Positions 1 through 16,954 of a DNA stretch of 64,000 bases are shown in pieces. Both the position numbers and the translations under genes were made by a program. The notes beneath the pieces were generated by a model. The model made no database searches. It was not told the DNA's origin and saw nothing but the letters and a program-made list of their open reading frames with translations. This stretch comes from Candidatus Aldehydirespirator sp. GTDB lineage: Bacteria; Actinomycetota; Acidimicrobiia; Acidimicrobiales; Aldehydirespiratoraceae. Position 1 is the stretch's first letter, and the number at the start of each line of letters is the position of its first letter. The stretch covers positions 2,028,048 through 2,092,047 of the forward strand of contig OZ241894.1 of the NCBI GenBank assembly GCA_965203575.1, written 5' to 3'.

Positions 1-133
1 CGGTGTGTGGTCTGTGCAGGAGTGGCCCCTCGGCGATGAGACGTTGCTCGACCCTCTGGAGTCGAGCGCGGTCCTGATCCTCCAGCGTCAGGACCCACTC
101 TCGGTACTCAGCAGTGGTCAGGAACTCCCACAT
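1..133 (-). CDS. RelE/ParE-superfamily (Gp49/HigB-like) toxin, N-terminal part; gene runs off the window start
   Basis: My own minus-strand translation from the ATG at 133 gives MWEFLTTAEYREWVLTLEDQDRARLQRVEQRLIAEGPLLHRPHT. This fits the MWE..F..W..L....R.......L...GP.LGRP pattern of Gp49-type toxins. It is absent from the ORF track because it is cut by the window edge. Confidence 0.5.
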   Translation of the reverse strand, partial: MWEFLTTAEYREWVLTLEDQDRARLQRVEQRLIAEGPLLHRPHT

Positions 134-333
134 GGCGCATTCAGCCTACGGAAGCCTCACAGGGCCACAAGGAGAAACCGACAGCGGCGCACCGTCTCAC
201 CCATGAGTCCCGATCGATTCCAGTCGGCGGCGAACACTCACGACGACGGCGGAACTCGATCCGGCGGCACCGATCCGCTCGGTCGGGCACACCCGCACTG
301 CATCAGTACGGCAGGCCCATACGCGGCCATCTG

Positions 334-771
334 GTGAGGCTGAGCTCGACCCACGACCCGGCCGGCGGCACCCCCGCCAACGCGTCGACGTTCCCGGTCG
401 CCCGCCGGACCGACTCCTCTGGCTCGGTCCGCATCGGGTACACCTACACGGGCGGCGGCTCAACGGAGACGATCACAGCGAACACGGCCTCTGACGTGAC
501 GGCCAATGCGACGCTCACCCCGATCACCGCCGGTGGAGCCAATGTCACGAAGGCTGTCTACTGGGCGGCACCAGCGGCAGGCCCCGGCGTCGCCAGCGGA
601 ACGGTTCTGGCGGCCGACCTCGACAACAACACGATCATCGTCTCGGGCAGCGACGGTCCGCAGTCGGTCAACTACGACGACAACGACCAGTACGCCGTAG
701 GAGCATCCGGCGAGGAGGCCCTCACGAGCATGGTTCGGGGAAGTCATCACCTCCCCGGAACCCGAGGGTGA
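334..771 (+). pseudogene. Orphan fragment of the SLH-surface-protein paralogue family (C-terminal module, truncated after ...EEALTSM)
   Basis: VYWAAPAAGPG..GTVLAADLDNNTIIVSGSDGPQSVNYDDNDQY aligns with VYWAADAG...VLAGD.RRR.IVVNDGDGPV.LV.DDNDRF of the 4542 and 7073 proteins. It has no signal peptide or SLH region, and homology stops at about 735. Confidence 0.55.
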
Positions 772-819
772 ACGCCTCATGCTCGCGTAGGGCGCCGCAA
801 CCTCGCTTGCAGCGGAGCG

Positions 820-2070
820 TCAGTGGGCGGTCCAGAGGCGGGATATGGGCAATGCCAGTATGCGGTCTCCGAGGCGGTAGGCGTGTTCGCCGGTGTGCAG
901 GACGGCGCCGCACACGAAGTCGTCGGAAGCCCGGTCGCGGAGCCAATGGAGGTGCCGGGCATCGTGTCGGTGCACGACGGGGGCCGACTTGACCTCGATG
1001 GCCACCAGCCGGCCGTCGGCGGCCTCGGCGACGATGTCTATCTCGGTGCCGCCGCGGTCGCGGAAGTGGTGCAGGGCAATGTTGTCGCTGTGCCAGGAGA
1101 CTTGGCGGTGCAGTTCGTTGGCGACGAAGGACTCGATGAGCTGGCCGCGGGCGGGATCCGTGGGGCGGGCCAGCGACTGCGGATTCCTGCCGAGCAGGTA
1201 CGCGGCGAGACCGCTGTCGACGAGGTGAGCCTTCTGCCGACGGGCGGCCTTGCTGGAGAGGTTGCGCGACCATGCCGGCAGCAGCAGGACCAGATAGGTC
1301 ATCTGCAGGTACCCGAGGTAGGCCTCGGTGGTGCTGCGGCTTCCGAGGCCAGTCGCCCGGTGCAGGTTCTCCAGAACCAGCTCGCCGGCTGTGCGGGCCG
1401 CCAGCAGCCTCAGCAGCTTGGGCAGCTCGTATGTGCGCCGTGCGCCCGAGAGGTCCTTGATGTCGCGCTGGATGACGGTTCGCACATAGTCGCGGAACCA
1501 CACCTGGCGGGTCTGCGGCGCCATGGCCACCGCCTCGGGGAACCCTCCCGCACAGACTCGGCTGAGATAGTCGGGAAGGCCCAACGTAGAGGGTCCGCCG
1601 TCCAGGAGGCGGTCAGGATCCGCGAAGGCTGCTCTGACGAACCCGTCGGGTTCCTGGTGCATCTCACCTTGTGTGAAGGGCCAGAGCTCCAGGAACGCCG
1701 CCCGGCCCGCCAGTGACTCGGAGATGGTCGGCACGGTCAGGAAGTCCGCCGAGCCGTTCAGCAGGAACTGGCCGCGGCTGGGATCGTCGTCCACGATGTT
1801 CTTGATGGCCCGGATCAGGGGGTCGCCGGCCCGCTGCACCTCGTCGAAGGCCCGCGGCGTGTCCCCGAACGCGGCGAACCCATCGGGGTCGTCCAACGCG
1901 GCCCGCAGGGTCGCCTCCCGGTCGAGGCGCGCGAACGTGCCCGCGCCGCCCAGTGTGTGGCGCACCAGCGTGGTCTTGCCCGCTTGGCGCGGACCGGTGA
2001 CCACCACCACTCGAAAGCTGGACAGCATGCGGCGGGTGATCGGCTCCAAGCGTCTCGGCACGTCACCCAT
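820..2070 (-). CDS. AAA-family ATPase with C-terminal DUF4143 (PD-(D/E)xK-like) domain
   Basis: Walker A is VVVTGPRQAGKTTL. The C-terminal TEIDIVAEAADGRLVAIEVKS resembles a nuclease-fold D..E.K motif. Paralogous to 16955..18232 and to the 12054 fragment. Confidence 0.85.
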   Translation of the reverse strand: MGDVPRRLEPITRRMLSSFRVVVVTGPRQAGKTTLVRHTLGGAGTFARLDREATLRAALDDPDGFAAFGDTPRAFDEVQRAGDPLIRAIKNIVDDDPSRGQFLLNGSADFLTVPTISESLAGRAAFLELWPFTQGEMHQEPDGFVRAAFADPDRLLDGGPSTLGLPDYLSRVCAGGFPEAVAMAPQTRQVWFRDYVRTVIQRDIKDLSGARRTYELPKLLRLLAARTAGELVLENLHRATGLGSRSTTEAYLGYLQMTYLVLLLPAWSRNLSSKAARRQKAHLVDSGLAAYLLGRNPQSLARPTDPARGQLIESFVANELHRQVSWHSDNIALHHFRDRGGTEIDIVAEAADGRLVAIEVKSAPVVHRHDARHLHWLRDRASDDFVCGAVLHTGEHAYRLGDRILALPISRLWTAH

Positions 2071-2309
2071 CCGGGCCTCCTAATGCTAAAATCGTCTGAA
2101 GCCTATTGGTAGTTTCGTCCTACAACTACTGGGACTATCGTCGGTTCTCGCCAATCCGAAGGCATCCGCTGGGCAACAATCACCTACCCGCGCTGCCTCT
2201 AATTCAAAATCAGAACTTGAAACAGCTGCTCATCAGAGCCGAGACTGGTCACGCCTGTAACCCGGGCGCAGCGGCTGGTGCCCGCGCGGACACCGCCGGG
2301 GTGCCGGCG

Positions 2310-2462
2310 TCACTCGGCTCGCAATACCTGCTCGTTCTCGCGCTGCGCGAGGTAGTCGTCGGCTTCTGACCTGAACGCCACGGCCCCGTCCGAGTCATGT
2401 GCAGTTATGTGGATATTGTTCCAATGGCCCACCCGAACCCTGCAATCGAACAATACCGTCAT
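2310..2462 (-). CDS. Small hypothetical protein (50 aa)
   Basis: My own translation gives MTVLFDCRVRVGHWNNIHITAHDSDGAVAFRSEADDYLAQRENEQVLRAE. A GGAGGA sits about 13 nt upstream of the ATG. Below the ORF-track size cutoff; no recognisable family. Confidence 0.3.
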   Translation of the reverse strand: MTVLFDCRVRVGHWNNIHITAHDSDGAVAFRSEADDYLAQRENEQVLRAE

Positions 2463-2526
2463 AACTCAGTAGTCCTCCGGTGTCCGCCGTCGCTGAACGC
2501 ACATCGCTCCTGCTAGGGTCGTCTCA

Positions 2527-2979
2527 GTGAACGACATGGACTCTCCCGCAGAGGTGCCTGCCGGCGGCCATGATCGGGCCGGGCCGCTGCTGGCGCGCCG
2601 CTACACGGTTGTGGGCGAGCTCCCCGCCGCTATGGCGATCCCCGGCGGCCGCGGCGCGGGCTACTGGCCGGTGATCCAGCTCGTCAAGGACTGGAACAAC
2701 CAGCCCGAGTCGAGGGCCCTCATGCTCGCCGGCGGCCTGCCCGAAGGCACGGACGCGACCGCCGCGGCCAAGATTGCGGCGGTCGTGCATGCGCTGTGCC
2801 AGCGCGACGGCCATCCCCCGCCGGAGTGGGTCGCCTCGGCCCGCTCGCCTGTTGATGTGGCCCTGGTGCCCGACGTGGACCTGGAGTCGCCCTACGGGCG
2901 GCGTCTGCGCCGCGACGCCCCCGGGGTCTGCCGCTACCACCGGGTCTACTTCTCGGTGGTGGACCTTCGTTCCACATGA
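2527..2979 (+). CDS. Hypothetical protein, translationally coupled partner of the downstream nucleotidyltransferase-fold protein (possible antitoxin)
   Basis: 150-aa ORF whose stop overlaps the next start (ATGA at 2976-2979). No family recognised. Confidence 0.5.
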   Translation: MNDMDSPAEVPAGGHDRAGPLLARRYTVVGELPAAMAIPGGRGAGYWPVIQLVKDWNNQPESRALMLAGGLPEGTDATAAAKIAAVVHALCQRDGHPPPEWVASARSPVDVALVPDVDLESPYGRRLRRDAPGVCRYHRVYFSVVDLRST

Positions 2980-3593
2980 CCGAGGCCTGGCCGCCGGTAC
3001 CGCCTGACCCGCAGCTCGGCGCCGCCGACATCCGGCGCCTGTTCGACGCGTTGTCGTCGCATCTGCGCGATGCCGGCTCGGCCGGCCACCACCTGATGAT
3101 CGCCGGCGGGGCTGCGTTGGCGCTGATGTGGGAGGACCGCACCACCCACGACATCGACGTCCTCGAGCACCGCTTCCGCGCCGCGCCGCACGCCGGCACC
3201 GAGCGGCGCACCGCAGCGGTGGACTTCATCTCGATGCGCTTCCCCGCCGAGTTGGCGCGCGCCGCCCGGCTCGTCGCCGACGCCGAGGGCCTCCCGCGCA
3301 ACTGGCTCAACGGCGCCGTGGCGATCTTCACGCCCGCCGGCGACCTCCATCCCCAGGTTCTGCACCAGACCGACTGCCTCACGATCGAAGCCCCCTCGCC
3401 CGCCGTGCTGCTGGCCATGAAGGTGTACGCAGCCCGCCCCCTGGACCTCCAAGACGCAGCCCGGCTGGCGCGCGGCACCGGGGCTACAGACCCCGGCCAG
3501 CTGCTCGCGCTGGTCGCGGACGCCTACGGCGCCGACGCCGCCGACGCCGCCACCGCCGACTTCGCCGAGCAGGCTGTGTCGCTGGCGCTCTAG
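2976..3593 (+). CDS. Nucleotidyltransferase-fold protein (DUF6036/AbiEii-like minimal NTase)
   Basis: IAGGAALALMWEDRTTHDIDVL matches the G-x-A...T.DID NTase motif. WLNGAV and PAVLLAMKVYAARPLDLQDA match the C-terminal pattern of this family. Confidence 0.55.
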   Translation: MTEAWPPVPPDPQLGAADIRRLFDALSSHLRDAGSAGHHLMIAGGAALALMWEDRTTHDIDVLEHRFRAAPHAGTERRTAAVDFISMRFPAELARAARLVADAEGLPRNWLNGAVAIFTPAGDLHPQVLHQTDCLTIEAPSPAVLLAMKVYAARPLDLQDAARLARGTGATDPGQLLALVADAYGADAADAATADFAEQAVSLAL

Positions 3594-3654
3594 CGGAGGG
3601 GGTCGGGGCCCCGGGACGCACGGGGTCCCGTTCCCGGGAACCCCTTCCCGGGCG

Positions 3655-3729
3655 CCAGGGTCACCCTGGCGACGGCCGCGTCACCGAGTACGGCCTGAGC
3701 TGAGCGGCCTCGCATCTTGGGAGTTGCGC
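3655..3729 (+). pseudogene. Displaced 3' end of an SLH-family paralogue (...GRVTEYGLS*) plus a conserved 22-nt post-stop block
   Basis: gtcaccgagtac..ctga followed by cctcgcatcttgggagttgcgc (3708-3729). The same 22-mer follows the stop of the 4542..5633 gene (5638-5659). Confidence 0.55.
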
Positions 3730-3834
3730 CGGGAGTCTGGCCGGCGACCGGGATTGGAGGGTTGACGCAAGCAGGGTGCCTATAGTTGAGTGTGGGCTAG
3801 TTGAGTGTGGGCGCACCACAGGAGAGGCGAAGCC

Positions 3835-4068
3835 ATGGACGACATCGATCGGCTCTTGGCAGATTATGGTCGGAACTTTCCCGCCTTTGAACGACAGGAA
3901 GCGCTCCTTGAGCAGGAGCATCTCGGCAGGTTCGCCCTGTTTTGCGACGGCGAGCTAGTCGGCGTGTACGACACCTCCGAGGAGGCTGACGCCGCGGGAG
4001 CAGCCCACGGCGACTACGCGGTGTTCAAGATCGGCAGACAGCCTCTCAGATTCTCAATGCCCGCGTGA
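3835..4068 (+). CDS. Small hypothetical protein (DUF5678-like pattern)
   Basis: AGGAGAGG RBS before the ATG at 3835. MDDIDRLLADYGRNFPAFERQEALLEQEHLGRFALFCDGELVGVYDTSEEA resembles small G.WVA..DG.VV proteins. Weak call. Confidence 0.4.
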   Translation: MDDIDRLLADYGRNFPAFERQEALLEQEHLGRFALFCDGELVGVYDTSEEADAAGAAHGDYAVFKIGRQPLRFSMPA

Positions 4069-4250
4069 CGGCGCTCTATGCGCCGATGTGGATCGTCCCG
4101 AGACGGCTCCCAACTCAATGGCGGCTGTGGAAGGCGCACATCGACACAGGGTCTCCGGTGACCATCGCCGGGAGCCGTCTCGCGCGCCATCTGCTGGAAC
4201 AGCACATCAGGCACCTGACAAACGAGCGTCGAGGGCCACGCGCATCGAGT
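4065..4250 (+). pseudogene. Possible retropepsin-like aspartic protease fragment
   Basis: WKAHIDTGSPVTIAGSRLARHL contains a D-T-G-S active-site-like motif in the usual context. The frame degenerates into low-complexity sequence after about 60 aa. Confidence 0.3.
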
Positions 4251-4541
4251 CACCCACACGCTGCGCAGCAATGTCCTTCGGCACAGTCGTGCTTGCGGCA
4301 ATGTTGCAGTGCCGGCACCGTGCCCGAGGCACAGAACACAGAGCCTCCGTCTTGTCCCTCAGCCGTCCACGGGCTCCCCTCGTCGCCTGGGCGCCTCAGC
4401 CGCGGCCGGCTGGTTCGTGCGCCCCTTGTGAGGTCGGCGTTTGCGCGGCGCTCGTACCTCAGACGGCCGCCTCGTCCGACATGTCGGAGTTGTCCGGCAG
4501 CCTGTAGTGAAAAGGATTGTCCAGGCCTGTGGTCCTAGAGA

Positions 4542-5633
4542 TTGCTTACGGGTTGGGCAGTGCTCGCCGCAGGCGCCTTGATCGCATCGCTCCTCGCAGT
4601 CAGCGCGAGCCCGGCAGCAGCCGTCCAAGAGAAGGCGGACCACGCTTCGGCGACGGCGGCGTGTGTGGGTGACGCTCTCGGCGACCAGATGTTCACCGAC
4701 GTGTCCGATGGTCACGCCTTTGGCGACGCCATCAACTGCGTCGCCTACTACGGCATCACCAACGGCACCGGGGACGGCTCGACGTACTCCCCGAACGACG
4801 ATGTGACCCGGGCCGAGATGGCGACGTTCCTGATCGGTCTGCTCGTCGAGGCCGCACCGAACGTGACTGTCGACTCCAACGGCACCATCCTGTTGGGCAC
4901 CGCGGGTTCAAGGTCCGTGGCCGACGACCGCTTCCCCGACACGAGCGATGCGAAGATCGCTGCGCTCTACGAGCTGGGCGTGACCAGGGGTGCCAGCGCT
5001 GCGGAGGTGCAGGATCCCACAATGCCGCCGCTGGACCTCAACTACGAGCCCGACGGCACCGTCGACCGGGGCCAGATGGCTGCGTTGCTGGGCGGATTCG
5101 CATCCAACAGCGCGACCGTCACCGTGCTCGACCAGTACGGCAATCCCTTCCCCGGCGCCAAAGTCAGGCTCGCAGGCACCCTGTCGGGGTCGGGGACCGT
5201 CACACACGGTACCGCCGAGCTCACGGTGGACGGCCGCGGCTCCCGCCGGTTCGCCTACCAGTACAGGGGGCAGGGCGGCGAGACCGAAACCCTGACCCCC
5301 TCCTACGGTGCGACCACTGCCAACCTCACGGGGACGACCGCCACGGTGTACTGGGCCGCCGACGCCGGACCGAACGACGACGACGAAGCCCGGGCGGTGC
5401 TGGCCGGCGACATCCGCCGGCGCCACATCGTGGTCAACGACGGCGACGGCCCCGTGCTGCTGGTCTACGACGATAATGACCGGTTCAACCTGCGGGGCGA
5501 GCCCACCTCGATGGCCGCCTTCGAGGCCGTTCTCGCCGCGGCGCTCAGGCAGGACAGTCCGGGCGTGACCCTGGAGTGGAGCAACTACCGGGCCGGCAGC
5601 GACCGTCGCGTTACCGAGTACGACCTGACCTGA
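4542..5633 (+). CDS. Secreted SLH-domain surface protein with Big-like domain and conserved family C-terminal module
   Basis: Signal-like AVLAAGALIASLLAVSASPAAAV. SLH pattern FTDVSDGHAFGDAINCVAYYGITNGTGDGSTYSPNDDVTRAEMATFL. Ig-like VTVLDQYGNPFPGAKV. C-terminal VYWAAD...EWSNYRAGSDRRVTEYDLT. The TTG start is uncertain. Confidence 0.8.
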   Translation: MLTGWAVLAAGALIASLLAVSASPAAAVQEKADHASATAACVGDALGDQMFTDVSDGHAFGDAINCVAYYGITNGTGDGSTYSPNDDVTRAEMATFLIGLLVEAAPNVTVDSNGTILLGTAGSRSVADDRFPDTSDAKIAALYELGVTRGASAAEVQDPTMPPLDLNYEPDGTVDRGQMAALLGGFASNSATVTVLDQYGNPFPGAKVRLAGTLSGSGTVTHGTAELTVDGRGSRRFAYQYRGQGGETETLTPSYGATTANLTGTTATVYWAADAGPNDDDEARAVLAGDIRRRHIVVNDGDGPVLLVYDDNDRFNLRGEPTSMAAFEAVLAAALRQDSPGVTLEWSNYRAGSDRRVTEYDLT

Positions 5634-5713
5634 ACGCCCTCGCATCTTGGGAGTTGCGCTGAGCAGCCGGTGTGGCACACTGGGGGCCTGCCGCGGCAGG
5701 CCAAGGAGATTGA

Positions 5714-5929
5714 TTGAGTGGACGCAGGCCACGCCACGGACACGGCGACTATGAGGCGCTGCTGAAACGGGCCGAGGACGATGGTTGGCGCGTCACCAAG
5801 GGCAAGAAGCACTTTCGTGCTCTCTGTCCGTACCCATGCGAGTGCAGGGTGACGGTCTCAGCTACCCCTCGACACTCGGGGACGCTCAAGAAGGTCCGCG
5901 CGGACTTCAACCGATGCAGAGGCGGGTGA
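5714..5929 (+). CDS. Small basic protein, HicA-like toxin candidate
   Basis: YEALLKRAEDDGWRVTKGKKHFRALCP....RVTVSATPRHSGTLKKVRADF resembles the HicA layout (..L...GW......SH......P......P.H.....GTL..I). The resemblance is weak. Confidence 0.4.
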   Translation: MSGRRPRHGHGDYEALLKRAEDDGWRVTKGKKHFRALCPYPCECRVTVSATPRHSGTLKKVRADFNRCRGG

Positions 5930-5930
5930 C

Positions 5931-6305
5931 ATGGTGACCGAGGATCATGTGCAGGTGAGCGTCGCAGGCACGCTGACCTGTATCGACGAGAACGGAGCCA
6001 GAGCGCTCTCTGCCGATGAGTTCCACGACGTGATGGACCGCATAGCCGAGCATCTCGACAACGAGGCCGAGATCACGGACCCGGGCACATGGGGTCAGGC
6101 CAGCACGGGCGATATGGAGGTCCATTTCGTTCTTGTCGATGCCGTCGCTGGACCCGAGCTGAACCAGCAGGTCGGGTCCATCATCAGGCGGATGGGCGAG
6201 GAGGTTGGCCTGATCTGGCCCACCGCGCCGAGCGGGGCGACGCGCAGTGTCTCGGGCACGATGCTGGCCCAGACGCGCCAGATCTGCGAACTAGTGGCGG
6301 CGTAG
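5931..6305 (+). CDS. Acidic hypothetical protein, coupled partner of the HicA-like gene
   Basis: The start is 1 nt after the upstream stop (tgacatg). 124 aa; family not recognised. Confidence 0.45.
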   Translation: MVTEDHVQVSVAGTLTCIDENGARALSADEFHDVMDRIAEHLDNEAEITDPGTWGQASTGDMEVHFVLVDAVAGPELNQQVGSIIRRMGEEVGLIWPTAPSGATRSVSGTMLAQTRQICELVAA

Positions 6306-6307
6306 CC

Positions 6308-6357
6308 CACTACCGTCCCGGCAGCGGCCGCCGAGTCACCGAGTACTCCCTGACCTG
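6308..6357 (+). repeat. Second copy of the 50-bp 3' end of the 4542..5633 gene (direct repeat of 5584-5633)
   Basis: cactaccgtcccggcagcggccgccgagtcaccgagtactccctgacctg versus caactaccgggccggcagcgaccgtcgcgttaccgagtacgacctgacctg. Reads ..YRPGSGRRVTEYSLT. Confidence 0.8.
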
Positions 6358-6500
6358 GTGCGGCAACAAGAAAGGGACCCCGTGCGTTCCGGGATCCCGT
6401 TGTCAGCGGTGTGTCGGCTGCATTCGGCTTGCGCCTACTAGCCGGACCGTCAGACGGCTCGATGCTAGGGCCCTGTCACCGCAGTTTCAAACTGGTTCTC

Positions 6501-6977
6501 TCAAATCAGTGGGATCCTGTTCTTGTAGGCCCTGCCTGCGCGGGTGAGTGCTGGCGGGGTGCGGGGAAGCGTGCAGACAGCAGCCAGGGCGTCGGGGATC
6601 AGATCGTGCTCGGCAACGGGCACGCGCAGGCGCGGCCCGTCCACCAGGCGAGCCCGAGTGGATTCACGGCAGCCAGCCGCTGGGAGCGTGGAGGTCCACG
6701 CCGCCGGAAGCGCGAACCGGATCGGGCAGGCGGTTGGACTGGATCGTCTGGGGGTATATCGAGAACGCTGCAGAGGCGGCCTGCTCAAGCTGGGACGAGC
6801 GCCGCCTTGGAGGGAACGCGACGATGACACGCTTGTGCGGGAAGCGGCGCCGGACGGACTCGACCGGCGGCACGAGATCACTATCGCCTGACACGACGAT
6901 CGCAGTGTCGAATCGATTGTCGGAAGCGTCCTCCAGAAGACGCCGTCGATGTAGGCGACCACCCGCGACGCTCCCAC
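6501..6977 (-). pseudogene. NYN (LabA-like) domain gene, frameshifted with an internal deletion
   Basis: The N-terminal VVAYIDG is in one frame. RFDTAIVVSGDSDLVPPVESVRRRFPHKRVIVAFPP is in another (6664..6894). The spacing between the two motifs is far too short. Confidence 0.5.
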
Positions 6978-7072
6978 AGGACGGCGACTGTGCTTAACCC
7001 GATGCCGCGTGCACCTGCGAACTGTCAGAGGTCACTCAGGCCGATCGGTCCTCCTTCCCGTGCGAGATTGAT

Positions 7073-8206
7073 GTGACTGACCCGGTCACCGGACGCGACG
7101 GTGACGCGAGAGTGGCGGTCACCGGTCTGCGGCGCGTTCCGGGGGGCGGTGCCGTCGCGTGGGCCTGGACCGGTCGAACCGGTGACACTCTGGGAGCCGG
7201 CGCAGACCTGTACACGCTCGAGGTGGCCGAGGGAGCCGACGTTGGCTTTGCCACGACCACGCTGATCAGCACGTTCAGCGCCCGCAAGGCTCGCTTCGGC
7301 AGCACGGTCCTGTACACCATGCAGCTGCAAGACATCGTCGGCAACGTACAGACCGGCGAGAATGGTATTGACCCCGCCAAGTGGCTTCTCTCGGTGCGGG
7401 TTGGCGCCGGAGAGCCCGACGAGCAGACGCTGGTGTCCGACCCGTCCGGAGAGGTCGCCTTCACCATCAGCGTGGCAGACCCGAACCCTGGCAGCGCCGA
7501 CGGCGACCTAACGGCTACCTACACGCTGGCCGCGCTCGACAACGCACCCCCCATTGTCGACGCGAGCGGGCAGCCGGCGGCAACCGGCACGTTGACCTTC
7601 AGCGAAGAGGCCAGCAGCATCAGCCCAGGCAGCGCGACGGTCACCATCGAGACCCCCGAGTACGTACACGTGTTGGGCGGCACCGCGTCCAACAGCGTGA
7701 CTGTCACGGTGCGCGATCAGTACGGTTCTCCGTTCCCGGGTGCCATGGTCAGCCTGGGCAGTAGCGGCTTGTCGGACGTCACGCTCGACAGCAGCTCGGT
7801 GCTGACCACGAACAGCCGCGGTTCCCAACGGTTCGCCTACCGTTACAACGGTTCTGGCGGCGAGACGGAGACCCTGACCGCGGGCTACGGCGTCAACAGC
7901 GCCAGCGAGGGCAGCGAGACCGCCACCGTGTACTGGGCCGCTGACGCCGGCGAGGCCGACAGCGGGCCTGTCCTGGCCGGCGATGCCCGCAGGAGGCAGA
8001 TCGTGGTCAATGACGGCGACGGTCCGGTGATCTTGGTCTTCGACGACAACGACCGGTTCGACGTACGGGGCTCGCCCACCAGCATGACCCTCTTCCAGGC
8101 CGAGCTCGCTGAGGCGCTCCGGCGCGACAACCCCGGAGTGGAACTGGAGTGGAGCAACTACAGGGCCCGCAGCGAGAGGCGCGTCACCGAGTACGACCTG
8201 AGTTGA
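7073..8206 (+). CDS. SLH-family paralogue lacking signal peptide and SLH region (5'-truncated, possibly silent copy)
   Basis: VTVRDQYGSPFPGAMV (Big-like), AYRYNGSGGETETLTAGYG, then VYWAADAG...EWSNYRARSERRVTEYDLS. The middle region resembles the 12588 protein (VAWAWTG vs VTVWAWTG). Confidence 0.55.
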   Translation: MTDPVTGRDGDARVAVTGLRRVPGGGAVAWAWTGRTGDTLGAGADLYTLEVAEGADVGFATTTLISTFSARKARFGSTVLYTMQLQDIVGNVQTGENGIDPAKWLLSVRVGAGEPDEQTLVSDPSGEVAFTISVADPNPGSADGDLTATYTLAALDNAPPIVDASGQPAATGTLTFSEEASSISPGSATVTIETPEYVHVLGGTASNSVTVTVRDQYGSPFPGAMVSLGSSGLSDVTLDSSSVLTTNSRGSQRFAYRYNGSGGETETLTAGYGVNSASEGSETATVYWAADAGEADSGPVLAGDARRRQIVVNDGDGPVILVFDDNDRFDVRGSPTSMTLFQAELAEALRRDNPGVELEWSNYRARSERRVTEYDLS

Positions 8207-8312
8207 ACGTCGTCCTTCCGGCCTCGCCAGGAAGTTCAGCCCCAAGAACCACCCATGGGGGGTCGCAAGCAGGTCTATCGCGAGGATGGGCCGCGCCCCG
8301 TCGCTCAAACCG

Positions 8313-8507
8313 TTATGTGCAGTTGTCGTTCACCACGCCGAGACCGAACATCGCGGCGCCGACGATGACGCCCACGAACACGGTCGAGAAGAAGTTCTCG
8401 GTGAAGTTGGTCCATGCGACCGCCACCACGCTGCGGCGCGCCGCGGCGCGGGCCGCGGCCTCGTCGGAGGTCGGTGCCGTTGGTCGGGGGTCGGGTGCTG
8501 GGGCCAT
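8313..8507 (-). CDS. Truncated copy of the small proline-rich single-TM protein (lacks the coiled-coil tail)
   Basis: MAPAPDPRPTAPTSDEAAARAAARRSVVAVAWTNFTENFFSTVFVGVIVGAAMFGLGVVNDNCT* is near-identical to the N-terminus of 9708..10166. Confidence 0.45.
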   Translation of the reverse strand: MAPAPDPRPTAPTSDEAAARAAARRSVVAVAWTNFTENFFSTVFVGVIVGAAMFGLGVVNDNCT

Positions 8508-8530
8508 TCGAGCAGGCGGGTAGGCGACTA
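8313..8530. repeat. Left arm of an inverted repeat of about 215 bp
   Basis: Its reverse complement matches 9690-9905 almost base for base (gcctacccgcctgctcgaatggcccc...ggcgtggtgaacgacaac). Confidence 0.85.
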
Positions 8531-8737
8531 GACGGGAGCTTCCAGGCGCTCGATCCGTTCTTCGTAGCTCTCCAGTGCACCCAGGATCCCATTGACGGTC
8601 TCGATGAGCGTCTTCTGGTTCGCCTCCAACCTGTCGAAGCGCTCGTGCAACTCTTTCACGGACGCGGCCACCTCTCTCACGGACGCGGCCACCGCGTCCA
8701 ACAGCTCGTAGATCGAGGCGAGTGAGTGTTCCTCCAC
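8528..8737 (-). CDS. Small coiled-coil protein (69 aa)
   Basis: AAGGAGGA RBS 7 nt before the GTG at 8737. VEEHSLASIYELLDAVAASVREVAASVKELHERFDRLEANQKTLIETVNGILGALESYEERIERLEAPV has heptad-like character. Confidence 0.55.
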   Translation of the reverse strand: MEEHSLASIYELLDAVAASVREVAASVKELHERFDRLEANQKTLIETVNGILGALESYEERIERLEAPV

Positions 8738-9525
8738 GGCAGTTCCTCCTTGTTCCAGCATATCGGAAGACGATGTTAATGATAAACACCTACATTTCAT
8801 ACATTATCGGGCCAGTGACCGCACGCGGTGTTGACTATCTGGTGGGAGGGCGCAGCACTCCGCTGTCGCTCAGCGCTCCGTTGGGCAGCGGGGAACATGA
8901 TGTGACGCGCTGGATTGACGGTCTGTTGCCCGACAGCCTCCAGGTTCGCCGCAAATGGGCAGACCGTGCGGGCGCCCGCTCCGCCGGCGCCATGGACCTG
9001 CTGGGGACGCCCATCGGCTTGGACTGCGCTGGGGCGGTCCAGTTCTGCCGCCCAGGCGACGAGGAGTCGCGCCGCCGCCGGAGCAGCGGCCTGGAACCTC
9101 AGGGCGAGAGCGACGTGGCCGGGTGGATCAGGCGGGTCCGGCGCGACTGGTCGGACTGGAGCGGCATCGGCTCCTCGGGCCGGTTCAGCCTGGCCGGGGC
9201 GCAGCCCAAGTGCGCCCTCCACTGGGACGGACACCAGTGGTGCGTCCCGCACGGCGACACGCCAACGACGCACATCCTGAAGCCGCGAGCGTCCAGCCAG
9301 CCGTCTGCGTGGGCCGCGGCTGCCGGGGCGCTGCGACTGGATGCCGGTGCAGTCATAGACCGGGCAGCCGAGATCACCCGTGGCACCCCCTCCGCGATCA
9401 GCGACGCCATCGACGGCCTCTCCGACGAGGACCGGGCCTCGCGGGCGCTGCCGCTGCTGCACAGCCTCTCCCGGCGGCTCGCGATCCGGGCGGCGGCCTC
9501 TCTCGTGCAGCCCGGGGCCTACTAG
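8722..9525 (+). pseudogene. hipA: hipA-type kinase toxin remnant (N-terminal and C-terminal pieces, kinase core deleted)
   Basis: LSLSAPL...WIDGLLPDS...LLGTPIGLDCAGAVQF, SLAGAQPKCAL and THILKP are HipA N-domain signatures. The sequence jumps to a short C-terminal tail after THILKP. The total is about 250 aa, where HipA proteins are typically roughly 400 aa or more. Confidence 0.6.
8757..8785 (-). promoter_or_regulatory. Sigma-70-like promoter candidate for the 8737 gene
   Basis: On the minus strand, TTATCA - 17 nt - TATGCT lies in an AT-rich patch. Confidence 0.35.
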
Positions 9526-9689
9526 CTGTGACCGTCAAGTGTCCTTAGAGTCACAGTCGGCACTTCGGTCATTGTTGATGTATGCTGATGCACAGCCTTG
9601 CCACCGGGTGTCAACGGTGTGCCTTCGGTCCTGCCGTACGCTCACCCGACCCGAACGAGGTTCCCGTGCCCTCTCCCGCCGACCCCGCC

Positions 9690-9905
9690 GCCTACCCGCC
9701 TGCTCGAATGGCCCCAGCCTCCGACCCCCCACCAACGGCACCAGCCTCCGACGAGGCCCCGGCCCGCGCCGCGGCGCGCCGCGGCGTGGTGGCGGTCGCA
9801 TGGACCAACTTCACCGAGAACTTCTTCTCGACCGTGTTCGTGGGCGTCATCGTCGGCGCCGCGATGTTCGGTCTCGGCGTGGTGAACGACAACATCAACG
9901 ACGAA
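9690..9905. repeat. Right arm of the inverted repeat of about 215 bp
   Basis: See the left arm at 8313-8530. Confidence 0.85.
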
Positions 9906-10166
9906 TTCGCCGAGATCGACGCCCAATTCGCCGCTGTCGACGCCCGATTCATAAGGCTGGAGGACGAGATCGACGCCCGATTCATAAGGCTGGAGGACGA
10001 GATCGACGCCCGATTCGCGAAGCTCGAGGAGAACCAGATGGAGATGGCGCTGACACTGGCGAGGGTGGTCGCCCTGTTGGAGGCCCGCGGCGACGCGGAG
10101 CCCGCACCTGCGGGCCACGCCCCCGCAGCGCAATCGAGTACCGAGGGGCCCGGCGCCCACGGATAG
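9708..10166 (+). CDS. Small proline-rich single-TM coiled-coil protein
   Basis: TM segment FFSTVFVGVIVGAAMFGLGVV, followed by IDAQFAAVDARFIRLEDEIDARFIRLEDEIDARFAKLEENQ (33-bp in-frame tandem repeat). The start could be further upstream (ORF begins at 9582). Confidence 0.6.
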   Translation: MAPASDPPPTAPASDEAPARAAARRGVVAVAWTNFTENFFSTVFVGVIVGAAMFGLGVVNDNINDEFAEIDAQFAAVDARFIRLEDEIDARFIRLEDEIDARFAKLEENQMEMALTLARVVALLEARGDAEPAPAGHAPAAQSSTEGPGAHG

Positions 10167-10239
10167 CCCGCGCCGAACCGTCTGATCCCCACGCCGGCGT
10201 CGAGCTCCGCACCGCAGCGGTACCTCGACTTGTACCCCG

Positions 10240-10355
10240 GCGGCCCACGGTCGGCCCTGTCGGTCACGGCCGCAGCCGGAACGGCTCCCGCGGCTAGGAC
10301 CGAGGCGACCAGAGCGCCGACAGCGAGAACTGCCAAAGCCCGAGTGCCTCTTCAT
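10240..10355 (-). pseudogene. 5' remnant (signal peptide region) of an SLH-family gene, frameshifted
   Basis: MKRHSG, then after a frameshift LAVLAVGALVASVLAAGAVPAAAVTDRAD. Compare KRRSGTSILAAGALVASLVAVGARPAAAVETVAD of the 12588 protein. Confidence 0.5.
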
Positions 10356-10531
10356 TAGCTGGAGCATCGCGAGCCTTCCCTCGTTAGATGCTCGCAGCCA
10401 GCCTGGCGATTGTGGACAACGCGGGGGTAGCCGTGGACGAATGAGGTACAAGTCGAGGCTTCCTGTGAGGAAATCACGCCAATTCGCGTCCTGTGATCAC
10501 GCCGATTCGCGCTCTGTCTGTCTCCGACCTG

Positions 10532-10591
10532 CCAGGGCGGGGGTTGGGTGGTCAGGGCGGGGGTTGGGTGGTCAGGGCTGGCTTGGATGTC
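10532..10591. repeat. 20-bp tandem triplication spanning the Fic gene stop codon
   Basis: ccagggcgggggttgggtgg / tcagggcgggggttgggtgg / tcagggctggcttggatgtc. The last copy is the real stop plus the final codons. Confidence 0.7.
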
Positions 10592-11870
10592 CGGCGGGGC
10601 AGTTGCCTCCGGGCCGCGGTCTCGGTCCGGGTGCCGGCAGCAGGGTGAGGTTGTCGGCGGGCTGGTGCCGGGATGCCTCGGTGAAGGCGTCCATCATGGC
10701 GACGCATTCGAAGACCCTGTTGCGGCGTCCGGCGCTGCGCTGGGCGAGGATGCCCGCCTCGGCGAGCCTGGAGACGGCGTTGCGGGCGGTCCGATCGGTC
10801 GAGCCGAGCAGTCTCTGTGCGCTGGCGGCGGTGACGACCGGGTTGGTCGGAAGGTGGGCCAGCAGCCGGAACGCCGCGCTCGACGACCGGATGCGATGCT
10901 CGCCGGCGGTGGCGGCCCACAGCTGCTGCAGGGCGTCCACATGGGCGTTGAGCCGGTCGTGCAGCCGGCAGGCGTGGTCCGACGCCGACGCGAGGTGCTC
11001 GATCCAGCCCTGGAACGCACGCGATCGGCTCGGGTCGTCGGGCCCGCAGACGACGCGGGTCGCGTCGAGCGCGTCGAGGTACTCGCGTCTGGTGAGCATC
11101 AGCGCGGCGCTGACCGGCAGCGCCGCGTCGGTGGCGAGTCCGGCCCTCAGGTACATGTACTGCAGCAGCGCCCGGCCGGTGCGGCCGTTGCCGTCGGGGA
11201 ACGGATGGATCGTCTCGAACTGTGCGTGAGCCACCGCGGCGCGCACCAGCGGGATCCCGTCGTCGGGCTCGTTGATGTAGGCGACGAGGTCCTCGAGCAG
11301 GCCGGGCACGGCTTCGGGAGGGGGACCCACGTGGTGCGCTTGCAGCGGCCCGCCGAGCTGGCCGGCGCCGACCCAGTTCTGCCGGTCGCGTACCTGCCCC
11401 GAGATCGGGTCCTCACCCATCAGCGTCCCGTGCAGTTGCCGGAGCCCGTCCGCGGACAGCGCTGTGCCCGACGCGGCCAGCTCGCGTGCATGGGCGGTGA
11501 CGCTGATGTTGCGCAGCGCCTGCATCTCGTCCTCGCCGGACTGCTGGCCGAACAGCGCCAGCCGGGCCTCGGCCCGGGCGACCCTTCGGGCCGAGGGGCG
11601 GATCCCCTCGATGCTGCTGGACGCGATGCTCTCGGCGCGCTCGAGCAGCCACTCGGCGGGCAGCCGGCCGTCGGTGCCGTGCTGGAGGTCCCGGCATCGC
11701 TGAGTGGCGGCGGCCACACGCTGCCATGTGCGAGCGTTCAGATCCGGCGCCCAGCCGCTGATCAGGTGCGGAATGTACGCCTCGAACACCTCCGAGGGCG
11801 GATCGTCGGCGCGGGCAGGCCGCGAGTCGTAGTCGCGGCTGTCCCAGTAGCGGGGAGTTGTCATGCCCAT
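10572..11870 (-). CDS. Fic family protein (AMPylase-type)
   Basis: Canonical HPFPDGNGRTGRAL Fic motif, with a C-terminal wHTH-like region (RTARNAVSRLAEAGIL). Confidence 0.9.
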   Translation of the reverse strand: MGMTTPRYWDSRDYDSRPARADDPPSEVFEAYIPHLISGWAPDLNARTWQRVAAATQRCRDLQHGTDGRLPAEWLLERAESIASSSIEGIRPSARRVARAEARLALFGQQSGEDEMQALRNISVTAHARELAASGTALSADGLRQLHGTLMGEDPISGQVRDRQNWVGAGQLGGPLQAHHVGPPPEAVPGLLEDLVAYINEPDDGIPLVRAAVAHAQFETIHPFPDGNGRTGRALLQYMYLRAGLATDAALPVSAALMLTRREYLDALDATRVVCGPDDPSRSRAFQGWIEHLASASDHACRLHDRLNAHVDALQQLWAATAGEHRIRSSSAAFRLLAHLPTNPVVTAASAQRLLGSTDRTARNAVSRLAEAGILAQRSAGRRNRVFECVAMMDAFTEASRHQPADNLTLLPAPGPRPRPGGNCPAGHPSQP

Positions 11871-12053
11871 CGCTTGGTCCCCTGCCGCAGCCAGCTTGAT
11901 GCGGCAATGTCATATGCCTATATCTGCTGAGTTTACCGTATGATCGTACTTGCGGCAACGTTTCACCGGGACCCCACGCTATGTGGGGATCAGAAGTCTA
12001 GGAGTCTGAGAATTAGTAGTGCTATAGACTGAGAAATAGTAGCGTATGGGGTT

Positions 12054-12260
12054 GTGAACCAGGCGTACCAGCCTCGGATCGTGGATGATCAGCTCGACCG
12101 GCTCCTCGGAGGGCTGCCGGCTGTGTGTGTCGAGGGTCCACGGGCTGTGGGCAAGACCTCGACTGCTTTGCGGCGGGCCGGCACGGTCCACGACCTGGAC
12201 GATCCCGAGACCATGGCGCTCGTGGAGGCCGACCCCGGCCGGCTCGTGCGGGGCTCACCG
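12054..12260 (+). pseudogene. N-terminal fragment of a DUF4143-type AAA ATPase
   Basis: YQPRIVDDQLDRLLGGLPAVCVEGPRAVGKTSTALRRAGTVHDLDDPETMALVEADPGRL matches the paralogues and then degenerates. An unrelated 3' gene fragment (...VVVSSYDPTDSGDVARFVLTVVAN*) follows, ending at 12370. Confidence 0.6.
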
Positions 12261-12450
12261 CCGACGGGAAGCGCACGGCCGGCCCCAACGACACGGTCGT
12301 GGTGTCCTCCTACGATCCCACCGACTCCGGTGATGTCGCGAGGTTCGTGCTGACCGTGGTGGCCAACTAACCCAAAGGGCGGGCGCGGCTCCGGGCCAGC
12401 AGGCCCGGGGCCAACCCCCCCCCGCCTGACACAAACCACCAACCCCGAGA

Positions 12451-12476
12451 AGGCCCCGGCACCATCGCCGGGGCCT
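12451..12476. terminator. Perfect 10-bp stem hairpin (intrinsic-terminator-like, no T tract)
   Basis: aggccccggc accatc gccggggcct. Confidence 0.45.
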
Positions 12477-12587
12477 CCTCGCGTCCCCTCGCAAATGACT
12501 CCGGGTGATGCGGTTCACTCCGTGCATTCGCGGGCAGGCGAACTAGCCTGACCGCAGGTGTTCCAGCCACAAGCCAAGGAGGATCCA

Positions 12588-14654
12588 ATGCCTCAGACAG
12601 TGACGAAGCGGCGTTCGGGCACGTCGATCCTTGCCGCAGGCGCGCTTGTCGCCTCGCTCGTCGCGGTCGGGGCGCGCCCGGCAGCCGCGGTCGAGACCGT
12701 TGCCGACCATGCGACCCCAGTCACCGCCTGCGTCGGTGACGCCACTAGGGACCGGATGTTCACTGATGTGTCCCAGGGCCACTTCTTCCGGGGTGCGATC
12801 AACTGCCTGGCCTACTACGGGGTGACCGTCGGCTACGGCGACGGCACGTTCCGCCCGAGCCGGGATGTGTCCCGGTCCGAGATGGTGCTGTTCATGGAAC
12901 GGTCGGCCCGCGTCGCCGGCGCGGATCCCGCCACTGTCGTGGCCGACTTCGCCACGACGGGCTCCGACCCCGTGAACCGGGCCGACATGGCGCTGCTGAT
13001 CGCCAGGCTGCTCGCTTCGGCGACCAGCAACGACTCCCGCGTGAACGTGGTACTGGAATCCGACGGCACCTTCACCGTCGGTGGGACCGAGCCCGACGAC
13101 TCGTTCATAGACTCGCGCCAGCGGCAGCCCCGCACCAAGGACAGCGCGGCCGGCGCGCTGTTCGAGCTGGGTGTGGCGCAGGGCACCGGGGGCGGCAACT
13201 TCTCGCCGGAAGCGTCCGTGACCCGCGGGGAGATGGCCGCGTTCATCACCCGCGCTCTGGCCCACACCACGGCCCGTCCCGAGGGTGTGTCGATCCAGCA
13301 GTACCTGCCCGGTGAGGTGACCGTGTCGGTCCGCAACGAGGTCTTCGCCCCGGTCGTCGGCGCGGCGCTCGACGTCTTCTCGATCGGCTCGCCGGACGCC
13401 GGCCGGGCCTTCCGCAGCGACGGGTCGTGCAGTTCCCTCGTGAACGACGAGTCGGGCAGCACATCCTGCGTGATCGATGTTCTCGACCCGGTGACAGGGC
13501 CCGGCGGAGACTTCACGGTCGGCCTCGCCGCCACCGACGAGGAGAAGGTGACCGTGTGGGCCTGGACAGGAGCAATCGGGGGCGTGACCCGCAGCGGGGA
13601 CGGCAGGCTCGTCAGCGTCGAGGTGAGCACCCAGGGCGTGGAGGCGACCGGCGCGAAGGTCAGCAACAGCCTGCCCGAGAATGCGACCCATGTCCGTTTC
13701 GGCACGACCGTCACCGTCACCGTCCAGTTGGTCGGCGTGAACGGCCTGCGAGCGGTCCCGCCCGAGGACGGCGCCTCCTACACGATCAGGAAGGAGGCCT
13801 TCAACAGCATCGACGCTCCGGCCACTCCCAGCGGCAACCTCACGCAGAGGAGCACTGAGGTTGTCGAAGTGGACAGCACCGGCAAGATCGAGTTCACCCT
13901 CGACGGGGCCGATCCGGATCCCAACGATGCCGGAGACGCCGCCCCCGACGAGATCCTGTGGCGCTACACCGTCACCCCAGTCGGAGACAGCCCCCCGCTG
14001 GACGAGCCGGTCGAGGACGTGCAGGTCGTCTTCACCGACGCCGATCCGGCGGCGACCACGATCGACCTGGCCACTCAGGCCAAGTACCTGCGGGCTGCGA
14101 GGTCGAGCTCGCGGCCGGCCAGCAACGTGGTGATCGCCACTGTCACCGATCAGTACGGCCGGCCGTTCAGGGGCGCCGGTGTGACGCTCACGAGCGACAG
14201 TGCGTCGTCCACGTCCTTCAGCGACGTGACCACAGGCTCGTCGGGGACAGCTCGGATCGCCTATCGACACTCGGGCACCGTCGGCCTCCGCGAGACCCTG
14301 ACCGCAACCCTCGCGGACGGCGCGGCCGACACCGTCGATTTCCTGTGGGTCGCGGATCCTCCGGCCGCTTCCGAAGAGACGACCGGCGGCGGGAGACACA
14401 CGGTGCTCGCGGCCGACCACCAGCGCAACGAGGTCGTCGTCGATCTGTCCGTCGGTTTCGGGACCCCGACAGTGGTCGCCTACGACGGCAACGATCGGTT
14501 CCGTCTCGACGGCAGGATCGTGTCGCTGAGCGTCTTCGAGAGCGTGCTCGCCAACGAGTTGGACGGCGACGATGCCAGCGTCCTGCTGCTCGGCTGGGCG
14601 TCACGCGATCCCGACAACCAAGCCGATCGCACCGACTGGTACCTCACCAGCTAG
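12588..14654 (+). CDS. Large secreted SLH-domain surface protein (full-length family member)
   Basis: AGGAGG RBS before the ATG at 12588. Signal peptide ILAAGALVASLVAVGARPAAAV. SLH pattern FTDVSQGHFFRGAINCLAYYGVTVGYGDGTFRPSRDVSRSEMVLFM. Big-like ATVTDQYGRPFRGAGV. A divergent family C-terminal module (VVAYDGNDRFRLDG...). Confidence 0.85.
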   Translation: MPQTVTKRRSGTSILAAGALVASLVAVGARPAAAVETVADHATPVTACVGDATRDRMFTDVSQGHFFRGAINCLAYYGVTVGYGDGTFRPSRDVSRSEMVLFMERSARVAGADPATVVADFATTGSDPVNRADMALLIARLLASATSNDSRVNVVLESDGTFTVGGTEPDDSFIDSRQRQPRTKDSAAGALFELGVAQGTGGGNFSPEASVTRGEMAAFITRALAHTTARPEGVSIQQYLPGEVTVSVRNEVFAPVVGAALDVFSIGSPDAGRAFRSDGSCSSLVNDESGSTSCVIDVLDPVTGPGGDFTVGLAATDEEKVTVWAWTGAIGGVTRSGDGRLVSVEVSTQGVEATGAKVSNSLPENATHVRFGTTVTVTVQLVGVNGLRAVPPEDGASYTIRKEAFNSIDAPATPSGNLTQRSTEVVEVDSTGKIEFTLDGADPDPNDAGDAAPDEILWRYTVTPVGDSPPLDEPVEDVQVVFTDADPAATTIDLATQAKYLRAARSSSRPASNVVIATVTDQYGRPFRGAGVTLTSDSASSTSFSDVTTGSSGTARIAYRHSGTVGLRETLTATLADGAADTVDFLWVADPPAASEETTGGGRHTVLAADHQRNEVVVDLSVGFGTPTVVAYDGNDRFRLDGRIVSLSVFESVLANELDGDDASVLLLGWASRDPDNQADRTDWYLTS

Positions 14655-16804: not shown

Positions 16805-16954
16805 CGCCCCACAACCGTAAAATCACCAAAACACACGACAACCTACAAAGTCGAGCCGGGCGCCGATAGCCAAGTGTCCAAGAGTATGATCGTGGCTTGT
16901 CAATCTGTATAATATTCTTATGTTTATGTGTATGACACCGGAGACGGGGTGAGC

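Follow-up and report, generated by a model that had tools for sequence, protein, structure and literature searches.

A 64-kb window of the genome of 'Candidatus Aldehydirespirator' sp. contains a HicA-like, two-gene cassette (5714-6305) that lies immediately 3' of a gene for a surface protein with an SLH domain, referred to here as gene A (4542-5633, plus strand), and that is bracketed by a direct repeat corresponding to the 3' end of that gene. The repeat is probably a case of paralogy, with the right-hand copy being the tail of a second, destroyed paralogue that was left beside the HicA-like operon, as opposed to a duplicated attachment site. The best explanation places this scar within a mosaic island of surface-protein genes and defence or toxin-antitoxin modules, in a member of the sponge-associated Acidimicrobiia (Aldehydirespiratoraceae). 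The first-pass annotation of this DNA had envisaged instead a circular element that integrated into the 3' end of the gene and supplied a replacement end, a scenario that is not supported, given that the right-hand copy stems from a different allele, the boundaries of the cassette vary between loci and there is no empty site among the loci compared. The comparison included 17 fetched loci with the cassette pair, several of which overlap or are near-identical, such that they represent approximately 10 other genomic contexts (individual loci are denoted L001, L002 and so on).

The direct repeat consists of positions 5584-5632 and 6309-6357, both on the plus strand, which are 84% identical over 49 nucleotides (nt) in a repeat search of the window; the same pair was recovered by self-BLASTN of positions 1-12000 (83.7% over 49 nt, E = 1e-8), a check that the annotation had proposed and that agrees with its estimate of approximately 80% identity to the 3' end of the SLH-protein gene. 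Similarity of this order is far beyond chance. An nhmmer profile prepared from nine intact C-terminal domains of the protein family matched 6308-6360 (profile positions 223-275, E = 2.4e-7), and the core GTYACCGAGTAC occurs in four exact copies within positions 1-9000, with two more one-mismatch matches elsewhere in the window, against a chance expectation of 0.35 matches in the whole window. Chance similarity, which the annotation had named as a potential objection to its own reading, can thus be put aside. In all, the end of the gene is present four times, at 3654/3669-3702, 5584-5632, 6309-6357 and 8157-8205.

Gene A encodes a protein of 363 amino acids (aa) with a signal-peptide-like N-terminus, an SLH domain (Pfam E = 5e-12), a Big_1-like segment (E = 9e-5) and a conserved C-terminal domain that ends in ...NYRAGSDRRVTEYDLT before the stop codon. 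It has 96 homologues, many of which are named as S-layer-homology proteins of Acidimicrobiaceae or Acidimicrobiia, and one database entry (322 aa, from a 3.93-Mb contig) is 100% identical. The C-terminal ending common to proteins of the family reads ...VLLVYDDNDRF.LRG.PT...FE..LA.AL......L.WSNYR.GS.RRVTEY.L. The left-hand repeat is the native coding sequence of the last 49 nt of gene A, and runs on from the preceding part of the C-terminal domain with no change in identity to locus L021, in which the C-terminal domain, stop codon, leader, cassette and start of the right-hand repeat are likewise contiguous (window 5105-6332 corresponds to L021 3880-5093 at 89.5%). Since L021 shares the arrangement at approximately 90% identity, the event that gave rise to it is older than approximately 10% divergence. 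Gene A is itself an in-frame short form, from which approximately 880 nt of the middle region is gone in comparison with full-length paralogues; the breakpoint lies at approximately 5086, as judged from BLASTN blocks in L002 (290-602 corresponding to 4795-5086, and 1482-1994 to 5102-5635), and in L001 the two halves of gene A match two separate, adjoining genes.

The right-hand repeat, hereafter orphan 2, begins 3 nt past the stop codon of the cassette and resembles the family end over its full length. It stands in a different frame from that of the second cassette gene, and its stop codon has changed from TGA to TGG. The codons of orphan 2 read CAC TAC CGT CCC GGC AGC GGC CGC CGA GTC ACC GAG TAC TCC CTG ACC TGG, with CCC (Pro) and TCC (Ser) at positions at which gene A has GCC and GAC. 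Exactly the CCC and TCC combination is found at the end of gene P0016 in L001, and the TCC codon only in the minus-strand gene of L002. Because these codons match the end of P0016 and not that of gene A, orphan 2 stems from a different paralogue or allele of the family, of which it forms the final 49 nt. The same codons bear on the idea that the 49 nt were copied locally from the end of gene A upon insertion, whether as a long target-site duplication or by replication slippage, and diverged later. The cassette is old, with dS values against relatives of approximately 0.2-0.4, and 16% divergence between once-identical copies is not impossible; however, the two-nucleotide change from GAC to TCC and the change from GCC to CCC both coincide with codons of other family alleles, 49 nt far exceeds known target-site duplications, and neither a transposase nor terminal inverted repeats were found. 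A local origin of the repeat is considered very improbable.

The leader that separates gene A from the cassette genes (5634-5713, plus strand; CTTGGGAGTTGCGC) also speaks to the nature of the left-hand repeat. It contains a proposed promoter with the -35 element TTGCGC (5654-5659), a 16-nt spacer and the -10 element CACACT (5676-5681), followed by an 18-nt perfect palindrome (GGCCTGCCGCGGCAGGCC, 5685-5702), which is a candidate operator, and a Shine-Dalgarno sequence, AAGGAG (5703-5708), five nt 5' of the TTG start codon at 5714. A simple consensus scan made no promoter call at this position. The leader is kept in L013, L014, L015, L016, L021 and L023; in L011 the promoter elements read TTGCAC and CATACT at unchanged spacing, and the palindrome in L013, as read from the sequence, carries a compensatory change from T-A to C-G. 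These features suggest that the leader serves as a promoter with a candidate operator. A family gene end followed by the leader (ACGCCCTC..CTTGGG.GTTGCGC...) recurs at gene A, in L021, at the minus-strand family gene of L002 and at 3669-3729 of the window, and in decayed form in L004-7 and L013, where the family end (CCAGGATGACCGTCTCTGAACGCC) stands 5' of the cassette with no family gene attached. On the basis of this recurrence, the combination of family gene end and cassette leader is an old, repeated junction, and the left-hand repeat is the native end of gene A and not one supplied by an incoming element. The leader of the L002 minus-strand gene stops after ...GATGTGGCA (approximately 40 nt) and is followed by no cassette genes. 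This locus was considered as an empty site and ruled out, since the -35 region and spacer of the cassette are retained; with half of a promoter and no genes it is a deletion product.

Alignment of the fetched loci revealed that the unit conserved over unrelated contexts extends from approximately 5645-5653 to the TAG at 6303-6305. The left edge of the cassette differs by locus (5617, 5645, 5647, 5650, 5653, 5695, 5710 or 5729, a spread of approximately 110 nt). In L008/L014, L009/L010, L015, L016, L023 and L011 homology ends at the cassette stop codon (6305-6307), and nothing family-like was found 3' of it. The start of an orphan follows the cassette only in L021 and L022, and possibly in L004-7/L013; in L021 and L022 the first approximately 27 nt of orphan 2 are present and then give way to an inverted fragment of the C-terminal domain. 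L024 holds cassette debris (11469-11654), and L017 and L019 each contain part of a cassette. The annotation had proposed a search of related genomes for empty sites, but no precise one emerged, the only cassette-less counterpart being the imprecise remnant in L002; no fetched locus matches the flank beyond 6332, and a scan of metagenomes yielded no match to the orphan-type end GTCACCGAGTACTCCCTGACCTG. An apparent match between the flank 3' of the orphan and L004/L013 (TGCGGCAA...AAGGG) was rejected, having scored no better than chance in a shuffle test (4.5 against a mean of 4.7).

A further remnant, orphan 1 (3635-3729, plus strand), is a composite of pieces from another family gene. A Big_1 piece (3635-3668) matches gene A at 5138-5166 and a second, truncated family member (gene B, described below) at 7730-7756, with scores of 16.5-17 against a shuffle mean of approximately 10 (standard deviation 1, maximum 14.5). 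This piece joins directly onto the last 34 nt of the family end (3669-3702), followed by 27 nt of leader (3703-3729, CTCGCATCTTGGGAGTTGCGC), and positions 3669-3729 together match 5599-5659 at 89% (nhmmer E = 3e-6). Orphan 1 is thus itself a deletion product in two pieces. In the coordinates of the family profile the two orphans start at 223 (6308) and 239 (3669), which places their breakpoints 49 nt and 34 nt, respectively, ahead of the stop codon. Together with those of the other family fragments (see below), the breakpoints are scattered along the domain, a pattern that marks recombination between paralogues, both illegitimate and homologous, and not one recombination site.

These observations can be set against site-specific integration, whereby a circular cassette comprising the promoter, the two genes and a family 3' end as attachment site displaced the original end of gene A to 6309-6357, with the incoming copy restoring the end of the gene and the recombinase being encoded elsewhere. 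Integrative elements of the kind that form islands at tRNA genes insert at a gene's 3' end, for which they bring a substitute, and the locus resembles their products in its order of gene, inserted DNA and displaced 3' end as a direct repeat. The direct repeats on both sides of the cassette are in keeping with this, as are the occurrence of the cassette in many contexts, which implies that it moves somehow, and the decayed family end that precedes it in L004-7 and L013 without a family gene. However, no integrase, transposase or resolvase domains were detected among approximately 45 open reading frames (ORFs) of the window that were tested, as the annotation had already remarked with regard to integrases, and the cassette itself consists of two small genes only. 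Moreover, the longest identical run between the repeats, which could serve as a core, is 9 nt, and there are three separate such runs; the orphans break at different distances from the stop codon, one of them with an extra internal piece; most copies of the cassette lack a repeat past the TAG, and their left edges are spread; the loss in L002 was imprecise, and a clean empty site is wanting. In addition, the right-hand repeat is family-like over its full length from 3 nt past the cassette stop codon, a likeness that an attachment site does not need. Site-specific integration fails four of the five tests made here, and is regarded as unlikely.

A number of points nevertheless weigh against paralogy as the source of the repeat. 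The order of gene, cassette and displaced end is also the one expected from integration at a 3' end, and both orphans are situated directly 3' of a two-gene module and less than 50 nt from a family stop codon, positions that might hint at a preferred target. Genes for tyrosine recombinases (Phage_integrase) are present in or beside the homologous clusters of L002 (12049 onward) and L024 (4904-5893), which could likewise be cited in favour of integration. The source genome was viewed within the 64-kb window only, and the comparison loci are mostly metagenome contigs, in which paralogue clusters can be mis-assembled. It is conceivable, if rather doubtful, that the family 3' end (the last approximately 50 nt, with the core GTCACCGAGTAC) is a preferred site for the capture or exchange of promoter-bearing toxin-antitoxin cassettes, carried out by a tyrosine recombinase like those of L002 and L024, with its gene at another place in the cluster. 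Were this so, the paralogue array would constitute an integron-like cassette platform in sponge-symbiont Acidimicrobiia, and the scattered fragments would represent later decay. Integron cassettes proper, in which a promoterless ORF precedes an attC site within an array beside an integron integrase, differ from the present one, which has a candidate promoter of its own, a nearby hairpin that is terminator-like on the minus strand, and no integrase that could be found.

On the reading favoured here, the operon of the HicA-like protein and its acidic partner is a self-contained module with a proposed promoter of its own, and its ancestral site is directly 3' of a family gene. The body of a second paralogue would have been removed by deletion, or by replacement through recombination with one homologous and one illegitimate side, leaving its last 49 nt. 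This event would have preceded the split between the lineage of the window and that of L021/L022 (approximately 10% divergence), and decay of the remnant, with the change of TGA to TGG, would have come afterwards. The recombination scar itself is ordinary. Gene ends left over in this manner are, however, usable as markers for the order of rearrangements, and they offer a caution for scans based on sequence only, in that paralogy can produce a gene-end repeat beside a small operon with no integration involved.

The cassette genes themselves occupy 5714-5929 (71 aa, TTG start) and 5931-6305 (124 aa, ATG start), both on the plus strand, and encode a HicA-like basic protein, a candidate toxin, and an acidic partner of no known family, a candidate antitoxin. 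The tightly coupled pair that the annotation had placed in the 674 nt between the repeats is indeed present, the TGA of the first gene (5927-5929) and the ATG of the second (5931) being separated by one base. The first gene has dN/dS values of 0.06-0.15 and the second of 0.16-0.26, on which grounds both ORFs are real genes. The two occur side by side, with amino-acid identities of 57-97%, in L004-L016, L018, L020, L021 and L023, i.e. in approximately 10 other contexts, contrary to the annotation's reservation that the small ORFs might be conserved nowhere; matches to the cassette in genomes fall in 'Candidatus Aldehydirespirator' assemblies.

The 71-aa protein gave no Pfam match, HicA_toxin included, even at E <= 10, but was matched weakly by the PADLOC profiles PDC-M06A (E = 7e-6) and HicA-like (E = 5e-4). 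Its AlphaFold2 model (mean predicted local distance difference test score, pLDDT, 76.7) has an alpha-beta-beta-beta-alpha fold of the HicA, double-stranded-RNA-binding-like type, with helices at residues 10-23 and 55-69 and strands at 26-29, 33-37 and 45-49. Among PDB chains of similar length, those with the top Foldseek probabilities were both HicA proteins (6hpb_A, 0.80; 5yrz_B, 0.72), with TM-scores of 0.51/0.61 and 0.55/0.65, respectively, and weak E-values of 0.3-0.8. The annotation's description of a HicA-like protein with an acidic partner was correct.

The acidic partner is represented by 34 homologue clusters at 59-94% identity, from Acidimicrobiia-type contigs only, and a search of 1.84 billion proteins yielded 34 representatives at E <= 1e-3. 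It has no family in Pfam, NCBIfam or PADLOC, including when 27 members were compared with Pfam; in particular, no HicB or UPF0150 match was obtained in Pfam or PADLOC, and a scan of metagenome contigs with the alignment of the partner found no relatives. Prediction with AlphaFold2 from 25 sequences was poor (pLDDT 41). A relationship to calmodulin or EF-hand proteins was entertained on account of PDB profile matches, and was dismissed as these are weak (E >= 0.005) and are taken to reflect the acidic composition of the protein, an EF-loop-like motif being the most that they could indicate; residues 18-31 or thereabouts (IDENGARALSADEF) bear a loose likeness to an EF-hand loop that is likewise probably an effect of composition.

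Taken as a whole, the cassette has the appearance of a toxin-antitoxin-type operon. It resembles HicAB type II systems in that the gene for a small, basic alpha-beta-beta-beta-alpha protein comes first, with a second gene closely coupled to it, in having a predicted promoter of its own and a palindrome close to where transcription is predicted to begin, and in its setting in a variable region; canonical hicAB occupies the equivalent position 3' of family genes in L001 and L024. It departs from these systems in that the small protein lacks a Pfam HicA_toxin match, with weak PADLOC matches instead, and has a conserved cysteine cluster (CPYPCxC...C), and in that the partner is not HicB by sequence and belongs to no known family. 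The HicA-like module is lineage-restricted, and its acidic partner, which fits no described family, is a candidate for a new type of antitoxin.

The remains of the surface-protein family extend beyond gene A and the two orphans, with at least five pieces of one family, characterised by SLH, Big_1 and C-terminal domains, being present in the window with scattered breakpoints. Gene B (7073-8206, plus strand), which carries the fourth copy of the 3' end, is a 5'-truncated member; it matches Big_1 only in Pfam, has neither an SLH domain nor a signal peptide, and its homology begins at 7011, at a point internal to full-length relatives (L002 779-1994). Another truncated copy lies at 302-742, where profile positions 5-168 correspond to window 578-742, and fragments of the family are found in related loci also (profile positions 138-172 in L004-6 and L013, and 90-157, inverted, in L021). 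In the paralogues, which occur in both orientations, conserved 5' blocks (4338-4832) and 3' blocks (5086-5633) enclose variable middles. Over its first approximately 24 kb the window consists of clustered, paralogous genes for cell-surface proteins, with small toxin-antitoxin-like and defence modules interspersed.

The surface-layer locus sap of Campylobacter fetus is a paralogue-rich cluster that rearranges by recombination between conserved gene ends. The present cluster is similar to those of the sap type in that it has many paralogues, in either orientation, whose termini are conserved and whose middles vary, together with mosaic and partial copies. Here, however, the 3' C-terminal domain is the best-documented conserved block, the fragments have the look of decay products, and no evidence of programmed switching was obtained. 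A system of that kind, in which silent or partial copies recombine with expressed S-layer genes by gene conversion or inversion and the orphans are working substrates, could draw on the conserved 5' and 3' blocks around variable middles, on the many copies in both orientations, on the recurrence of fragments across genomes, and on a 205-nt, 97% inverted repeat at 8322-8526 and 9689-9893. Nevertheless, programmed variation appears improbable as an account of the orphans, which are invariant tails of only 34-49 nt and so have no variable segment that could be donated, and which break at irregular points, the stop codon of orphan 2 being decayed; no recombinase adjoins the cluster within the window. 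C-terminal displacement of the type known from polymorphic loci, which had also been suggested in the annotation, holds to the extent that a paralogue end has been left in a recombining cluster, whereas no variable toxin tip or immunity gene has been displaced. Unlike the orphan modules of Rhs or CdiA loci, the orphan comprises 16 conserved terminal codons and no variable domain, and the host gene encodes an SLH/Big_1 surface protein.

The annotation had drawn attention to a similar hairpin, inverted, beside both displaced ends. This was confirmed, 3604-3633 and 6370-6399 being 87% complementary over 30 nt, with no further copies in the window or in the loci searched for it. The hairpin at 6364-6399 scores on the minus strand as an intrinsic terminator (6398-6374, tail TTTCTTGTTG; fold z = -2.6), and that at 3604-3633 (plus strand; fold energy -38.1 kcal/mol) stands directly 3' of the stop codon (3593) of a gene for a 205-aa protein and is probably its terminator. 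Both are located 3' of a transcription unit that reads towards them, and the hairpin at 6364-6399 is not part of the cassette boundary. A promoter-like site on the minus strand (TTGAAA-17-TAGCAT, 6490-6462) lies approximately 65 nt upstream of the hairpin at 6398-6374, with which it could define a minus-strand transcript of approximately 90 nt directed towards orphan 2; this has no Rfam family, and an Rfam scan of 3000-9000 gave no match.

The 205-aa protein belongs to a two-gene module 5' of orphan 1 (2527-3593, plus strand; 150 aa and 205 aa), and has a weak match to the DUF6036 nucleotidyltransferase family (Pfam E = 0.0018, which misses the cut-off of that family). Modules other than the cassette also move: this one is 90% identical to L023 6615-7721, but its neighbour there is the 5' region of a family gene. 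Another small two-gene module, consisting of a 77-aa gene and an overlapping 157-aa ORF, is located between orphan 1 and gene A (3835-4538, plus strand); window 3831-4213 corresponds, inverted, to L023 6415-6033 at 79%, the genes at that locus encoding 77 and 163 aa. Canonical phd/parE modules, as well as hicAB, are found 3' of family genes in L001 and L024.

The cluster resembles defence islands in that PDC-S01-type AAA_14/DUF4143 ATPases, a Fic protein, a HipA-like fragment and two-gene modules lie among the surface genes, but differs in being interwoven with a paralogous surface-protein array in which gene 3' ends remain as markers of events. The S-layer-type paralogue clusters of Aldehydirespiratoraceae double, by this account, as landing zones for toxin-antitoxin and defence modules. 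Members of this family have been discussed among sponge-associated Actinobacteriota, of which symbiotic representatives are reported to be enriched in defence and toxin-antitoxin genes (PMC11706023), and ANME-1 hotspots with hicAB are a reported analogue of the island (PMC13385816).

Several other features were observed in and around the cluster. An AAA_14/DUF4143 ATPase is encoded at 820-2070 on the minus strand (PADLOC PDC-S01, E = 6e-144), within a block (754-2158) that is 98% identical over 1405 nt to L006 8599-10003, the surrounding DNA being 65-82% identical and differently arranged; the block has sharp edges, abuts the truncated family gene at 302-742 and looks recently exchanged. A Fic-domain protein (10572-11870, minus strand) and a second complete AAA_14/DUF4143 ATPase (16928-18232, plus strand) are encoded between family genes and add to the defence and toxin-antitoxin character of the first approximately 24 kb. 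The 205-nt inverted repeat mentioned above flanks a 1162-nt segment that bears a HipA-like fragment (8722-9525; Couple_hipA, E = 5e-8), and its arms encode the N-terminal part of a membrane or coiled-coil protein (9582-10166) and a mirrored copy; 8322-9893 may represent an inverted duplication of recent origin or else a segment capable of inversion. Within the coiled-coil-like ORF at 9582-10166 (194 aa) are three tandem 33-nt units, two of them identical (9937-10035). Positions 12054-12483 are more debris, 5' of the full-length family gene at 12558-14654, and comprise the N-terminal approximately 70 codons of another AAA_14-type ATPase in an apparent fusion to an unrelated tail (...VVVSSYDPTDSGDVARFVLTVVAN and stop) that ends at 12370, followed by a GC-rich hairpin (approximately 12447-12483) resembling the terminator 3' of a 927-aa SLH gene in L008. 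An NYN-domain remnant was suspected at 6664-6894 on the minus strand and discarded, having no Pfam match. Finally, an HNH-endonuclease ORF (26634-28457) and a VapE-like ORF (28497-29603) at the edge of the surface-protein cluster may be the remnant of a mobile element.

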